From contig OZ242186.1 of NCBI GenBank assembly GCA_965205675.1, positions 928,001 through 992,000 on the forward strand: 64,000 nt of DNA, in the 5' to 3' direction. The translations under genes were made by a program, and so were the position numbers. This stretch comes from Nitrosopumilus sp. Its GTDB lineage: Archaea; Thermoproteota; Nitrososphaeria; Nitrososphaerales; Nitrosopumilaceae. Position 1 is the first letter of the stretch, and each line of letters begins with the position of its first letter. The notes under the pieces are model-generated. The model searched no databases. It was not told the origin of the DNA and saw nothing but the letters and a program-made list of their open reading frames with translations. This document shows, one piece after another, positions 1 to 5,733 of the stretch.

Positions 1-656
1 TTTGTTGCAAGAATCCGTCTATTCTGTAATCTCCTAGTGCCTTGAGTCTTCTGTTGTATGTTTCAGTGAATGTAACTCCTGGAATCCTGATTCCTTCCTG
101 TAACAATATTCCATGAACTGAATTCTTGACAGATGTTCTCCATTGGATTAGTTTTTTCCTATATCTTACAAGCTGTCTTTGTTGTACAATCTTTTTGTCT
201 GGAACATAACATGTGGCAATGTATCCTCCTCGTAAAAGATCTGCCAATATCTTGGCATCAATCTTGTCTGTTTTCTTTTTTGATGTAGCAATTGCCTTTG
301 TCAAATATGGGTTTGAGAGTGTGACGTTTTTGTATCCCAAAGTATCTGTGAGAAATCGATACGTGTCATACCAGACTGATGAGGATTCCATTACAATATT
401 TGCAGAAATTGGTATTTTTGCAAAATGCTTTTTTATGGATTCATGCGTGTTATCCACTTTGTCATTTTGTAATACTTTGCCTGCATCATCCATTTATTAC
501 TTGAAGAAACTTCTTGTGCAGGTCAATGCCCACAAACATGCCTTTCTTTGGATTTTTTCTAATCTGTTTGTTTGTAATCTTTTTTGGAGCCGAGTATTTA
601 CGAACCTTGGAACTAGATTCATTTTTTATGCTATCTGATTTCCTTGCTTTCTTATT
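1..656 (-). pseudogene. IS110-family transposase (sibling B), frameshifted near 497, running off the window
   Basis: MFVGIDLHKKFLQV motif (ORF 486..704); a shifted frame continues MDDAGKVL...ESSSVWY...KKKTDKIDAKILADLLRGGYIA, the DEDD domain. Confidence 0.85.
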
Positions 657-1991
657 CACATATCCATGTGAATCCCTTTTAACTATTGTCGGTATTTTTG
701 CCATATTAATTACAGCTTACGCTAATACACTCATACTTTCAATCACAGATGAAACCAGACACATATCCATTCGGGGTTCTCCCCCAGTACCATCTTCATC
801 CATTTATTAGGTGAAACCGCGGTTATAGTTTCGAGGTATTATGCATCCTCAATGTGAAAACGCGGCCAAACTCCTAACTGTAATGTTTTACAAATTATTG
901 ATGACATTGAATAAATTCTCTCCTCTCCTTTAACATCCAATATATGACACGCAATAACTTTGATGCAGCAGCAACTGCTGCCTTTGAGGTCCCCCTCTTT
1001 TTCTTAATGCGATTATAAAATTTTGTAATGTCGCTATCTGGTGCGTATCTAACATGTGCATGAATTGCCTCCACTAGCAACCATCTTAGCATGGTGCTTC
1101 CTCTCTTTGTAATTCTTCCGTGATGTATTGTATCTGCAGAATTTCTCACCGATGGAACAATCCCTGCATATGCACATAACTTGTGAGAATTTGAAAATCT
1201 GCTAATCTCTGCAATTTCTGAGAATATGCTCAATGCAGTGTATGGTCCAACTCCAGGTATTGATGTCAAAATACACACATCAGAATTATCATTTACCATG
1301 CGACGTATCATGGAATCTATCTTTGCAACCTCCTTTTTGTGAAATTTTATGCTTTGTAGGTACGAATCTATTCTATAACTCTCCAATTTTCCAAGTGCAC
1401 GTATGTGTTCTGAGGAAAATGGTGTTGCTTTGATATGGATTCCCTCCTGTAGTGTAATACCATGTATGGAATTCTTCATCTTTACAATGATGCGCACAAT
1501 CTTGTGTCGATGTCTTACAAGCTGTCTGTATTGCACAATTGTGTGATCTGGCACAAATGATTCTGCAATGTATCCCTCCTCGTAGCAAATTTGCAAGATG
1601 GTACGCATCAATTTTATCAGTCTTTTTGAGTGATGATGCTATTATCTTTGTGTTGTATGGATTAGATAGTATAACATCAAGATGTAATTTGTCTGTCATG
1701 TGTCTATAAAGGCCATACCAGACAGATGATGACTCTAAAACATATTTTGCGTTCTTTGGAATTTTGGATGTAATTTTGCTAATAGCAGAAAAATCACTGG
1801 AAATCTTTTTGTTAAATAATAATTTGCCAATCTCATCTACTGCTGCCACCTGTACAGAGTTCTTGTGAACATCCAATCCTACAAACATCAAATATTTTTT
1901 TTCAGGAAGGGTAGTGTGTTTGTTTGCATTTCTTACTTTCTTGATACGAATGCAAGTACCATCTAATTTCCTAGCTGATTTTGGCACATAT
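657..1991 (-). mobile_element. IS110/IS1111-type element A, copy 1 (1335 bp); transposase split by a 1-bp frameshift (ORFs 1373..1987 and 895..1611)
   Basis: VGLDVHK, KTDKIDA, SIPGVG, YAGIVPSVRNS motifs; near-identical to 25079..26413; ATATGTG at both ends. Confidence 0.93.
664..894 (-). ncRNA. Putative bridge/seek RNA region of IS110 element A, copy 1
   Basis: Reverse complement of 26176..26406; two stem-loops whose loops match target and donor junctions. Confidence 0.7.
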
Positions 1992-3725
1992 GGTTATAGT
2001 TATTCCCTTTGGCCTTCCAGGCTTGCCTAGAATCGGAATTGCACCAGTACGGCGATACCGTGAGTAGAGTTTCTGCACCCACCGAACAGATATCTTCATG
2101 GATGAGGCTACGTCTGCGTTCTTGGCACCATCCTCTTTTGACTTGATTATCCAGGGTAACTGTCTAGAGTTTTGAAGTAAAATCTCCAAGATATTCTAAA
2201 GAATAATCATGAAAGTTTAATCCTCGTAATCTGCATGTCTCCTTTATACTCATCAGTATCTTATGAGAATCAGCACCATGAATGGTTCTATGACCGTTTG
2301 TAATTTTACGAATTATCACATTTGGTCTGATTGCCCTCTCTGCTGTGTTATTGTGTGAATCAGTTCCAGTAATTAGGAATGTAAAAAGCATTTTTCTCTC
2401 ACGTTTCAATCTTTTTACAAACCTGATACAGTTTTTCTCTGTGTATTTTTTTGATATGATGTGATTAATTCTCCTTTCAAGATTCTTTTTTGCATGGATT
2501 CTTTCTGATTCTGATTTTATTTTTGCCACACCATGAGAGTCATAAATTATTTTCTTGAGATTCTTGGCAAATGGTGCAAATTCTGGTCCGGGATTCTTGT
2601 GATTAATGGTATCATTAACCTCTCTGAGATAATGGATGTGACATTTCTGGTGAGTGCTTCCAACATGGTTCCATGCAGGGTACGAATCACTTGTAATGTT
2701 GCCATCATATCCCTTGAGAATTCTCTTGGGAACATCCATTGAACGTGATTTGTCAATCTCGTAAATTACAGTCCATTTACTCACAAATGCCCACAACCAG
2801 TGGTTCTGGCCATCTACCCTCCAACTTGTCTCATCACCATGTATGTTTAGATCTTCTTTTAACTCCACAATCATTGTATCATATCTGCTCCCAAATGCTT
2901 TTGATACTATTGATACTGCATGATTAATTGCAGATTCTGTAATGTGCAGTGAGAAGAGCATCTGCAAAAGATGAGATATTTTACCATACGATAATCCGAT
3001 AGTTTTTAGTGATGTGATTAGCACCATGAGCCTAATTCCAAACCTTTCATTTGACAGTACAGTGTGAATGTTACCCGAGATTTGTTTTTTGCAGTTTGTG
3101 CAGTATCGTCTAACTATCGTATATTTTGTCACAACTGCTTTTGCAGGAATGATGTCTTCTACTATTCTGGTGTATGAATCAGTTGGTTCTGAGAGTGATT
3201 TGCCACATGTGTTGCACTCTTTTTGGTCAACTGTAATGGCATCATCAATGTGTGCCCGTCTGCTTCTGCTTTTTCTAGGATGTCTTGATGTTTTCTTCTT
3301 TTTTGCAGTTTCAGTCTTGTTTGGTTTTGCTTTGATATTTCTTGCAACAAGTGTAGACACTGTTTGTTTTAGTTCTGCAATTTCTCTGTGTAACTGACGG
3401 TTTTCTTGCTCCAACGAGTGACATCTGTTGCGATAATATTCCAGCTCATCATATACTGACAATTGTATATTGTAATTTGTCACTGATCAGAAAAGATATA
3501 GATAAAAAATATTAAAGAAAGTACTTCAAAACTCTAGACAGTTACTATCCAGGATATCTGGATTGGATCTAACTTTTGCATAATCTTGTGATTCTTTCCT
3601 CTTTTCCAAACGTATCTTGACTTTAGTCTGGAAATGATGGGGTGAACTAATTTGAGGATAATAGAGTCTTCGAACTTTGTTTCCCAATTCTGCTTAACAC
3701 TTTCATTCTCAAAACAAATCAAACA
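1992..3725 (-). pseudogene. IS481-like element 5' part (HTH), interrupted by IS66 and cut by IS110
   Basis: Reconstructed MQKLDPIQISWIIKSKEDGAKNADVASSMKISVRWVQKLYSRYRRTGAIPILGKPGRPK; begins TGT at 3725. Confidence 0.55.
2156..3545 (-). mobile_element. IS66-like single-ORF element, copy 1 (transposase 2164..3483)
   Basis: TIR GTAACTGTCTAGAGTTTTGAAGTA; 8-bp TSD TATCCAGG; DET/SDSY/HQKCHIH/NNTAERAIR motifs. Confidence 0.93.
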
Positions 3726-3726
3726 T

Positions 3727-4180
3727 CTAATTCTGATTCATCTCCTGTGCTAATGCATCATCAATCATCAAATTGTAAATCATGACCTTGAATTTTATCT
3801 CCCTTATCACGTTACACCAAACTCTGGCTGAAATATTCTCTCCAAGAACTCTCTTGAATGTGGAAATTGCAATCTCTGCAGACCAGCGTCTTCCATAACC
3901 AACTCTAATTTTCCATTTGTTTCTATTCTGTATCTTTTGCTCATTTGTTAAATGATTAAACATTTTCACATTTTTACGATTCATTTTACAATTGCCAAGC
4001 TGCATGAAACCTTGCTTCTTTCTTGCAGTGCTTTTATTTGCCTTACCTGAGAAATTCTTTCTTATTGGAATAATTGGAATTGCATTTCTCTTTTCACATT
4101 CATCAAAATTGTCTTTGGAATCATATGCACCATCGGCTAGAACCTTGATTACATTTCCTTTCTGTGATGCTTATGCTGGC
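3727..4180 (-). pseudogene. IS5-family transposase C-terminal fragment fused to the 3' end of cofC
   Basis: VLADGAYDS...GYGRRWSAEIAISTFKR motifs; homologous to 7599..8465. Confidence 0.8.
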
Positions 4181-4811
4181 CGTTTAGTATTTCTTTAATT
4201 TTCTCTGAAATCTCTGGCTTTTCATTTTGTTCTAGTAAAAATTTCAAGTCTTTTGCATTATCTACATCCCACATTATTCGTTTGACAAACACCATTGCAA
4301 CATTTAGGGTCTTTTCTTTTGCAGTGTTCATGTGAATCTTATAGCTATCCTCGTCATAGTGGGTCTCCATCAAATCAATTGGCATTCTAACTAGTGCATT
4401 AGTCCCATCAAATCTTCTAGATGGAACAATGATTGCAAAATTTGGGTGTGTCTTGTAGTTTAGCATAAAGTCAATATCTTGAGTTTTGATAAATGGTATG
4501 TCTTGTGGAAATACAATTGATGCATCAAAGCTCTTCCCTAAAAGATACTCATCAGCTAATGCCACTGCATTATTGACACTTTCTTCTTTTTCATCAATGA
4601 TGGTGACTGTATCGAATTTCTTTCCAATCTTTATTGCTTTTTCTTCTTTTGTAACCATTATTGTTTTTTCAATTTGAGGTGAAATAGATAATGTATGTAA
4701 AATCTCCTCTAACATAACAATGCATAAATCTTCAACTTGTTGTGGCGATAAACCTAGGCGTGTTTTTGCTTTAGAGAAAGTCTTTACAGGAATTATTGCT
4801 GCTATTTTCAA
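4149..4811 (-). CDS. cofC: 2-phospho-L-lactate guanylyltransferase (F420 biosynthesis)
   Basis: IIPVK..AKTRL, DGTNAL, WDVD motifs; adjacent to cofD; last ~10 aa probably come from the IS fragment. Confidence 0.9.
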   Translation of the reverse strand: MKIAAIIPVKTFSKAKTRLGLSPQQVEDLCIVMLEEILHTLSISPQIEKTIMVTKEEKAIKIGKKFDTVTIIDEKEESVNNAVALADEYLLGKSFDASIVFPQDIPFIKTQDIDFMLNYKTHPNFAIIVPSRRFDGTNALVRMPIDLMETHYDEDSYKIHMNTAKEKTLNVAMVFVKRIMWDVDNAKDLKFLLEQNEKPEISEKIKEILNGQHKHHRKEM

Positions 4812-4812
4812 A

Positions 4813-5733
4813 TTATACGTGTACTTGTTTTAAAATGAAATTTGCTAATGCATCTTCTGCTAGTTTATTTTTCATAGTAATTTTTGTCTCAAACACTTTC
4901 ATGTCCAAACTCTGAATTTTCTTTGATAGCATTTTGTCTTTGGTATCTATAATGATGTTTGAGCATACATCTGAATACATTTTTGCTAATCCATATGCGT
5001 TTGATTCTATTCCTGCTGCTTGCATGTATTTTGCAGCAGGACCGCTAATTGCATTGTCTCCAATTAATGGACTGATTGCAACTACTTTCTTTTTTATTTT
5101 TGATAGTTCTTTTCTAATTCCTTTTATCTGAAGCATTGGACCAATTGATGTTAGTGGATTTCCCGGTGCTAAAATTATCATGTCTGCATCATGAATTGCA
5201 TTTATTGCTTCTGGATTTGGACGAGCTTTGTCTGCTCCGATATATTGAATTCCTTCTACGGGGTCTTTTCCTCTATGTTTAACCCAATATTCTTGCAAAT
5301 GCAATTCTCCTTTCTCTGTAGTAATTCTAGTTTCTATACTGTTATCTGTAACTGGAATGATATTTGCACTAACTGCAAATTTTTCACACATCCATTTTGT
5401 AATGTCACTTAGATTTTTTCCATTCTTTAACATGTTAGTTCTAATCAAATGAGTGGCCGCATCTCTGTCTCCCACTCTGAACCATGTCTCCTCCCCAAAA
5501 ACTTCCATTTGACGTAAAAAGTTGAATGTGTCTTTTTTCATCCCCCATCCCCTTTCTTGATCAAGCAAATCTGCTAATCCGTATACTATGGTATCAATGT
5601 CTGGACATACGTACAATCCGTATAACCAATAGTTATCTCCAACATTACTAATCACGTTGACTTTGGATTCTTGAACAACTAGTCCTCGAACCAGTTTAAC
5701 TGACCCTGTTCCTCCTGCTAAGACTGTAATCAT
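4813..5733 (-). CDS. cofD: 2-phospho-L-lactate transferase
   Basis: LAGGTGSVK, NVGD, CPDIDT, GDRDAATH, NPLTSIGP motifs. Confidence 0.95.
   Translation of the reverse strand: MITVLAGGTGSVKLVRGLVVQESKVNVISNVGDNYWLYGLYVCPDIDTIVYGLADLLDQERGWGMKKDTFNFLRQMEVFGEETWFRVGDRDAATHLIRTNMLKNGKNLSDITKWMCEKFAVSANIIPVTDNSIETRITTEKGELHLQEYWVKHRGKDPVEGIQYIGADKARPNPEAINAIHDADMIILAPGNPLTSIGPMLQIKGIRKELSKIKKKVVAISPLIGDNAISGPAAKYMQAAGIESNAYGLAKMYSDVCSNIIIDTKDKMLSKKIQSLDMKVFETKITMKNKLAEDALANFILKQVHV

Follow-up and report, generated by a model that had tools for sequence, protein, structure and literature searches.

Why does one insertion sequence (IS) of an archaeal genome always end exactly where a relative begins? 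The question is raised by a 64,000-nucleotide stretch (the window) of Nitrosopumilus sp. (assembly GCA_965205675.1, contig OZ242186.1, positions 928,001 to 992,000 of the forward strand), part of a genome that consists of a single contig of 2,011,361 bp with 33.7% G+C and whose SSU and LSU rRNA fit the archaeal models best. Three sibling IS1111-type elements of the IS110 superfamily, here termed A, B and C, are present in this genome. The window carries two copies of A in unrelated contexts, and the original prediction, made from the letters of the window, had noticed that each directly precedes the left end of a different IS110 element. This is confirmed here and applies to all nine complete copies of A genome-wide. 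The likely answer is guide-directed docking: A would insert at the left junctions of its siblings B and C, which its putative guide RNA appears to read. The elements concerned are:

Window 664..1997, minus strand: element A, copy 1; 1334 bp with the AT core counted once, delimited by BLAST copies and junctions.
Window 25073..26406, plus strand: element A, copy 2; preceded by GTAACC (25067-25072), the left target of C.
Window 1..663, minus strand: element B, 663 bp from the left; core AT (663-662) and next ATGTGAATAAG..., continuing past the window start to a full length of 1328 bp with the AATTACA flank counted in.
Window 26407..26612, plus strand: element C, reduced to a fragment of 206 bp from the left; 99% identity to full C copies.
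Window 1998..2004, minus strand: AATAACT, the left flank specified by B's own guide; the hexamer of A comes next.
Window 1992..1997, minus strand: hexamer ATAACC (core AT plus AACC), which accompanies every A-type left end.
Window 895..1987, minus strand: transposase gene of A; in two frames in the assembly, split at GGAGGGATAC (window 1574-1576).

Read on the minus strand, the first 2 kb of the window comprise the end of an IS66-family element, a 150-bp fragment of another IS, AATAACT (2004-1998), A (1997-664) and 663 bp of B. Copy 2 lies downstream of a (CACTTGTA)n-like repeat, a context unrelated to that of copy 1. Both copies finish with ...GGGATTCACATGG, followed by ATATGTGAATAA, and only then do the sequences split into B (GAAAGCAAGG... 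from 663 downwards) or C (ACAACGAAAT...). BLAST across the genome revealed eight uninterrupted full copies of A, one IS-split copy, one A/B hybrid and several fragments, and ATATGTGAATAA follows all nine A right ends (8 B-type, 1 C-type). B- and C-type left ends amount to 21 (16 and 5, respectively). A is found ahead of nine of them, and the 12 remaining left junctions show the plain sibling flank without A. Both states can be seen at two paralogous sites, whose flanks share 94.5% identity over 326 nt and 84% over 108 nt: one contains B alone and the other the hexamer, A and B.

The junction 14-mer CACATRGATATGTG occurs ten times in the genome, at the nine A junctions and at one C right end beside a natural ATGTG flank, and its reversed control does not occur. 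Among 400 other genomes of the order it was found once each in four, where controls also gave 4 hits, and only one of these four (G399) has a real tandem. There, a single-copy A-like element, 88% identical, is located directly ahead of a C-like element. The upstream flank of this pair has no match in the window genome, and common descent of the locus is neither shown nor excluded. A further genome, G416, which was found by scanning genome contigs, contains three copies with an A-type guide. The search for solo copies of A, by which the original prediction was to be judged, found 0/9 in the window genome, 0/1 in G399 and 0/3 among these G416 copies, and the claim was not refuted. The integron-like arrays that had also been expected did not appear: among 50 CACATGGAT sites and 10 junction-motif sites, there are no arrays of more than two elements and no A-A, B-B or B-A junctions.

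Could such a pattern arise by segmental duplication or by mis-assembly of repeats, without any sequence-specific cause? Repeats abound in the genome, the pairs at genome positions 929992 and 444219 have both flanks in common over more than 2 kb, and an upstream IS fragment is common to three pairs. However, at least seven different flanks are found upstream of A in this genome, and the same junction is found with other flanks in the two other genomes. Furthermore, the A-C junction is present in contigs of public sequencing runs (X2, loose end at 652). As a general explanation, duplication or mis-assembly is therefore extremely improbable. The public runs were compared as contigs, and a part of B is covered by one contig only. 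In X1 and X4, loose ends at window 672 join a C-type right end to a B-type left end, which may represent either a circle junction or a tandem of the kind found in G416.

What directs A to its siblings? In A, B and C, about 230 nt of non-coding sequence separate the stop codon from the right end, and the region upstream measures at most about 120 nt, all of it open frame. In the downstream region of A, the following features were delineated:

Window 739..885, minus strand: seekRNA/bridge-RNA-like region of A; two stem-loops with an internal loop in each.
Window 852..860, minus strand: 5' strand of loop 1, TTTTCACAT; putative right-target guide, reverse complement of ATGTGAAAA.
Window 821..831, minus strand: 3' strand of loop 1, AAACTATAACC; putative left-target guide, whose last six bases resemble the clade-wide flank TAACY.
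Window 786..795, minus strand: 5' strand of loop 2, AGATGGTACT; same-sense copy in the A left end at window 1955-1964.
Window 760..771, minus strand: 3' strand of loop 2, AATGGATATGTG; same sense as right end-core-left end (ATGG-AT-ATGTG).

RNAalifold was applied to 13 clade members (A, B and C of this genome, two G399 elements and eight from other genomes). It predicted two stem-loops with 23 pairs, 11 of which are accompanied by compensatory changes. An Rfam scan of window 1-2200 (E<=10) returned only chance-level matches, all well under the gathering scores. Across the 13 members, loop 1 relates to the top strand of both flanks: its 5' strand is complementary to the right flank, and its 3' strand has the same sequence as the left flank. 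In B, AT-AATTACA is found after 8 of the 10 full copies (AATTATA in two), and its reverse complement is the 5' strand TTGTAATTAT; the 3' strand TCTAATAACT repeats AATAACT of the left flank, and ATAACT is found ahead of solo B copies. In C, the strand TTAAACATAT corresponds to AT-ATGT(G)TTTAA and the strand TTTTGTAACT to GTAACC, one G.U pair included. Altogether, both loop-1 strands match the element's own flank in B, C and 9 or 10 relatives. When each of the 13 elements is paired with its own flank, the longest run has a mean of 7.8 on the right and 7.5 on the left; mismatched pairings give 4.7 and 4.8, and of 152 such pairings only 6% (right) and 9% (left) reach 7. In this comparison, the true left flank of the C-like element in G399 is masked by the tandem.

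In A, the same loop appears to read not a host sequence but the start of its siblings. The 5' strand of loop 1 reads the left end ATGTGAA of B and C (via ATGTGAAAA), and the left-target guide ends with AUAACC, to be compared with the flank TAACY. The guide of the A-like element in G399, TATTCACAT, complements ATGTGAATA at 9/9 bases. Thus, the proposal that sibling flank plus sibling left end form a target that A recognizes has gained support. The same holds for the proposed poorer fit of A's own left end: ATGTGCC fits the A guide at 5/7 positions, and the mobile end AACCATATG does not match at all. A different kind of target is used by a sibling family in G399. Its approximately 16 copies are always located in the repeated host sequence CATGTT(A/C)TTTGCTAACT / AT / (T)GATTCATAC, which looks like a target of the repetitive extragenic palindrome (REP) type.

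Loop 2 displays a second regularity. Its 3' strand co-varies with ATAG in C-type right ends. Its 5' strand (AGATGGTACT in A and C, AGATAGCAT in B, AGATGGTTG and ATAGTAAT in others) is repeated in the same sense 27-31 nt inside the own left end in 11 of the 13 clade members, and the two copies co-vary. This may reflect a second RNA-DNA contact far from the crossover. No description of such a left-end copy was found in the IS110/IS1111 literature examined.

To define the target of A, its left boundary has to be known. All 16 A-type left ends (17 with one mutated end) read TAAC[CT]-ATAACC-ATATGTGCC. The hexamer ATAACC is present at 16/16 A-type left ends versus 0/12 A-free B/C left junctions, and the solo left junctions (ATAACT-ATATGTGAA for B, GTAACC-ATATGTGAA for C) have no second hexamer. 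The hybrid copy of the window genome has a left guide that matches its flank at 10/10 positions, with the end point at the distal ATAACT, and G416 copies without a partner retain the hexamer. Together with the paralogous site pair, the register of the hybrid guide and these partner-less copies argue that the hexamer belongs to A. Accordingly placed by the guide/flank match of hybrid copies, copy 1 extends from AT-AACC-AT-ATGTGCC... to ...GGGATTCACATGG. The original prediction had taken ATATGTGCC as the left end, a boundary 6 bp too far in; the mobile left end is most consistently read as AACCATATGTGCC, with the six extra bases AACCAT included. With the hexamer inside A, the crossover falls on the AT that follows the sibling's own left flank. 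A target-derived origin of ATAACC, which can be aligned with the flank of CC-type relatives and with the end of A's left guide, was ruled out by the 10/10 match of the hybrid and by the partner-less G416 copies. Other cores (AA, CY, 4-nt, second AT) were compared by eye with all junctions, and none of them fitted B, C and the relatives jointly.

By homology with relatives that read ...ATAACC/ATATGTGCC, AACCAT looks like a captured former left flank plus core. At three loci the hexamer is doubled; an insertion of A at its own internal ATAACC-AT-ATGTGCC with subsequent collapse, or replication slippage, would explain this. The only TAACTATAACC away from A left ends is located at genome 303528 on the minus strand, followed by AT-ATACTGTC. 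It may hint at an ancestral non-IS target of A or be due to chance, since about three chance occurrences of the 11-mer are expected.

From these matches, a mechanism can be proposed. Every element of the clade is located at a left flank TAACY, with the core AT and its own left end ATGTG... coming next. The left-target guide of A (...AUAACC) would tolerate TAACY, and its right-target guide (UUUUCACAU; UAUUCACAU in the relative) would pair with the first 7-9 bases of the B/C left end (ATGTGAAUA). The target would then be TAACT-AT-ATGTGAATAA, i.e. sibling flank, core and left end, and with AACCAT carried by A, the crossover would occur at the core after the sibling's own left flank. Insertion exactly between the left flank and the left end of the sibling would yield an obligate head-to-tail pair, A-B or A-C. 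Once formed, an A-B pair could travel as one unit into ordinary B targets. The insertion step is deduced from the guide/flank matches and from a natural exchange of guides, and the composite spread from the linkage of single-nucleotide polymorphisms and the perfect B-type flanks of the pairs.

The natural exchange of guides was found in chimeric elements. Copies with an A-type loop 1 are stacked in 9/9 cases in the window genome, 1/1 in G399 and 3/3 in G416, in sum 13/13, and in G416 each of the three has a B left end next to it. By contrast, where the A left end and transposase are retained but the non-coding region is B-like, 0/1 copies in the window genome and 0/5 in G416 are stacked, in sum 0/6; the guides of the five G416 copies differ from those of A, and no sibling left end comes after any of them. 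The G416 count takes in copies with a readable right end and leaves out three more without a right end in range. The hybrid of the window genome (755681-754382) carries the guides TTGAAATTTA and TCTAATAACT, which match its own flanks AT-AATTTCA and tctAATAACT. This pattern would be expected if loop 1 causes stacking; as the copies share kinship, the comparison is no formal test. In these chimeras, the A left end and transposase are combined with a B-like non-coding region and right end. In another kind of chimera, solely the last ~90 nt of A have been swapped for a C-type right end. Module exchange among the siblings seems to be frequent.

Several observations weigh against independent docking of A. 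The register of its right guide is two bases off that of B and C, and the core is not covered. If the 5' part of the left guide (AAACU) is taken in, 10 bases match the product junction AACT-AT-AACC; simple insertion does not need this match, which would favour a crossover after the hexamer. In one contig of run X6, an A-type right end is followed by a non-sibling sequence (AT-ATACTGAATATT). The transposase frame is broken in all eight uninterrupted full A copies of the assembly, which means that A may not move on its own. Finally, the five full A-B pairs share a B allele at six sites in the first 240 nt (alignment positions 106, 109, 112, 229, 234 and 235) that is absent from all five solo B copies, and many pairs may hence originate from one join instead of repeated targeting.

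The alleles of the broken frame at window 1574-1576 are GGAGGGATAC (+1 G) in six copies and two derivatives with 3-nt deletions in two copies, all with the same offset. The IS-split copy (genome 443799/442701) has an in-frame GGAGGATA, and the IS is inserted exactly at that spot. At window 1574, one base is missing at full depth from the contigs of three public runs, and the best-matching run may itself be the source of the assembly. The frameshift may be real, may be specific to a strain or may stem from a systematic assembly error. In B, 2 of 10 copies have an intact frame. Elsewhere in the genome, intact transposase open reading frames (ORFs) encode 371 aa (B) and 369 aa (C).

The same observations suggest a passenger model: after one ancient accident, the hexamer, A and the partner would have moved only as a composite, using the guides and the transposase of the partner. 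In agreement with it, every A-B pair is located in a perfect B target (AATAACT ... AT-AATTA(C/T)A), the B allele is tied to A in 5/5 pairs versus 0/5 solo copies, and every A frame in the assembly is broken. Precedents are the module-wise circles of ISPpu9/ssr9 (available part of PMC12288879) and the half-match recombination of IS621 (available part of bioRxiv 2026.08.31.748434). Against it, at least four partner lineages border on copies of A that hardly differ (98.6-99.6% alike): the T-type B, two other B lineages, now stubs of 115-247 nt, and C at C's own flank GTAACC. In addition, loop 1 complements the partner's left end in three genomes, with 9/9 bases in G399, which a passenger would have no cause to retain, and copies without the A-type loop are not stacked (0/6). 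We consider a pure passenger unlikely. The linkage of the B allele, the shared flanks and the B-type targets indicate that some pairs spread as duplicated segments or as A-B composites, and several A-B pairs were probably propagated as composites using B's guides. The pairs in G416 and G399 have other flanks and other partner variants, and the upstream element in G416 has a C-type right-end tip. By our count, independent joins number at least four in the window genome, not nine, and at least two elsewhere.

For the pair in the window, the insertion site was considered, too. The pair splits the helix-turn-helix part of another IS, at window 2004-2155 (minus strand; genome 927335 downwards). Subtraction of the hexamer, A, B and one AT reopens the frame of this IS (...PGRPKGITIITEQMVQ...). 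Other runs have contigs with uninterrupted copies of it, in which the sequence is AATAATCACAG and thus falls short of the reconstructed site by 6 nt, and the X2 and X4 contigs read GGGAATAATCACAGAGCAG at this site. For the IS fragment in which three A-B pairs reside, a search for a copy without interruption yielded only a diverged paralogue (genome ~195780-195900), and neither the contigs nor this paralogue settle the sequence before insertion.

Does A gain anything from its position? The answer may be sought at its right end, where two ORFs cross the junctions:

Window 489..704, minus strand: ORF across the A-B junction; ATG in the A right end (704-702), through GIDLHK of the B N-terminus.
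Window 26366..26611, plus strand: ORF across the A-C junction; ATG in the A right end into the N-terminus of the C transposase, open to the end of the fragment.

The right end of A is B/C-like (ATTCACATGG) and mismatched to A's own left repeat, unlike the matched ends of relatives (e.g. ATGTGCC/GGCACAT). B has inverted repeats of 8 bp (ATGTGAAT/ATTCACAT), and in A only 5 bp match between ATGTGCC and ATTCACAT. Due to this right end, the A-B junction CACATGG-AT-ATGTGAATAAG has exactly the sequence of a B circle junction. When circle junctions were simulated, the frame from the GTG of ATATGTG was open for 6-45 codons upstream in 13/13 clade members. Six of the 13 have an ATG within the right end, and 11 of 13 have a T/A-rich box 20-22 nt upstream of the junction according to a regular expression; two A-types have TTAAAAG there. 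CACATGG joined to the sibling left end recreates a B-type circle junction, with a T/A box and an in-frame ATG before the sibling ORF, and we infer that the right end of A may drive expression of the sibling transposase. An archaeal TATA box at this position would, however, start the transcript a few bases inside the left end, and the role of the upstream ATG is thus uncertain. That the upstream element supplies the start of the downstream transposase, as had been suggested, holds insofar as an in-frame ATG is present in the A right end. It does not hold for the A-B frame as a whole, as this ORF (MAKIPTIVKRDSHGYVNKKARK...GIDLHK) ends after 72 codons at a 2-nt deletion in B.

The B/C-like right end also permits the reverse order of events. 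A circle of B or C could have recombined at the right junction of a resident A, recognized through the shared donor arm CACATGG/CACATAG alone. The mismatch of ATGTGCC with ATTCACAT and the identity of the A-B junction with a B circle junction are in agreement with this, as are the right-end tips swapped between A and C in G416 and the donor-only recognition described for IS621 in the available part of bioRxiv 2026.08.31.748434. Yet the right flank of the pairs is B's own AATTACA, a match to the B guide and not a right target of A, and the left flank is B's AATAACT. Moreover, no right flank of a pair was seen that matches the A guide instead of that of the partner, and a loop 1 of A that reads the partner's left end would stay unexplained. 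This order of events is very unlikely. Starting from guide-directed docking, a bolder idea can be put forward tentatively and with considerable doubt: A might be a hyperparasite of its own family which fakes the circle junction of a sibling by means of the T/A box and start codon in its right end, switches on a sibling transposase gene that is otherwise complete only in the excised circle and, its own gene perhaps being broken, uses this enzyme in trans together with its own guide RNA. The captured AACCAT would then be a device for self-avoidance that prevents A's own left junction from serving as a target.

The domain content of the elements agrees with their classification. PF01548, the N-terminal DEDD (RuvC-like) domain, was detected in the N-terminal ORF piece of A (5.3e-14) and in B (1e-19), and PF02371 (Transposase_20) in the C-terminal ORF piece of A (4.7e-23); B and C likewise have transposase domains of the IS110 family (PF01548/PF02371). 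A GIDLHK/GLDVHK motif is present in the transposases of the siblings. The surroundings contain further mobile elements. The IS66-family element beside the IS fragment upstream of copy 1 (window 2156-3500; ORF 2164-3483; PF03050) encodes a 439-aa transposase with a zinc finger and has about 25 near-identical copies in the genome. A short tandem repeat of CACTTGTA/CTTGCACTTGTA units (window 25030-25069) abuts copy 2 and ends in GTAACC. The C fragment is truncated by an IS630/Tc1-like element (window 26613-27750), whose two ORF pieces suggest a frameshifted transposase. Just downstream of the first IS cluster (window 4149-5733) are genes that, judging from their translations, we take to be CofC- and CofD-like (F420 biosynthesis).

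Insertion into the ends of other mobile elements is known in the family: IS4321 and IS5075 are IS1111-family members that insert in the terminal inverted repeats of Tn21-family transposons. Like A, they are IS1111-type elements with a specific target in the end of another mobile element. Unlike A, they use the repeat of an unrelated transposon, to which they are not tied as siblings; a common end chemistry and circle-junction mimicry are absent as well. The target of IS4321 is mentioned in the available part of PMC11187229 (Siddiquee et al. 2024), which describes the IS1111 seekRNA elements ISEc11, ISKpn4 and ISPa11. A resembles these in the DEDD transposase, the PF02371 C-terminus, the non-coding region downstream, putative subterminal inverted repeats, the location of the top-strand match 5' of the bottom-strand match and a target specific for each element. 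It differs from them in its archaeal host, in its target, which would be a hybrid junction of a sibling instead of a host repeat, and in inverted repeats unlike each other; its RNA is predicted from the sequence.

ISPpu9/ssr9 (PMC12288879, available part) parallels the A-B pair: adjacent modules with end-like bounds form circles of one, the other or both, and one module is deemed selfish and borrows the transposase of the other. In contrast to A, ssr9 is a small RNA gene without transposase or partner-aimed guide and is located downstream of its partner. Expanded or tandem IS110 loci (bioRxiv 2026.08.14.744561, available part) are alike in repeated insertion at occupied sites, tandem modules and one-sided donor matches. 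They comprise duplications of one element or gain of cargo, whereas the A guide would read the left-target/right-donor (LT/RD) junction of a different sibling. According to the same part of this IS110 survey, insertion does not regenerate the target, and no target immunity is needed, as the target is split into hybrid junctions. With the bridge RNA of IS621 (Durrant et al. and Hiraizumi et al. 2024; PMC13626964, available part), A shares two internal loops for the reading of target and donor, a core dinucleotide at either boundary and, putatively, a circular intermediate with a junction that activates expression. In IS621, the RNA is located upstream, the order of the guides is reversed and the core is CT instead of AT as in the A clade; A, unlike IS621, repeats its loop-2 5' strand in the same sense ~28 nt inward from the left end. 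In the main texts of the literature searched, supplements being outside that search, no description was found of an IS110/IS1111 guide aimed at a sibling junction. IS1111-type insertion in the ends of mobile elements, RNA-guided targets and tandem IS110 loci are thus already known; what appears to be new, as far as these texts go, is a guide that would read the LT/RD junction of a sibling.

RNA-guided IS110/IS1111 recombinases are under development as programmable genome editors, while the logic by which they choose targets in nature is still being charted. The locus points to a possible second guide contact about 28 nt inside the left end. The three archaeal genomes constitute a natural guide-swap series, in which the same ends and enzyme are combined with a different guide and a different landing site. 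If the proposed docking is true, it would provide a simple, testable case of one RNA-guided transposon parasitizing another. Evolution of a guide would then lead to ordered pairs of elements, in which a head-to-tail neighbour substitutes for the circle junction.

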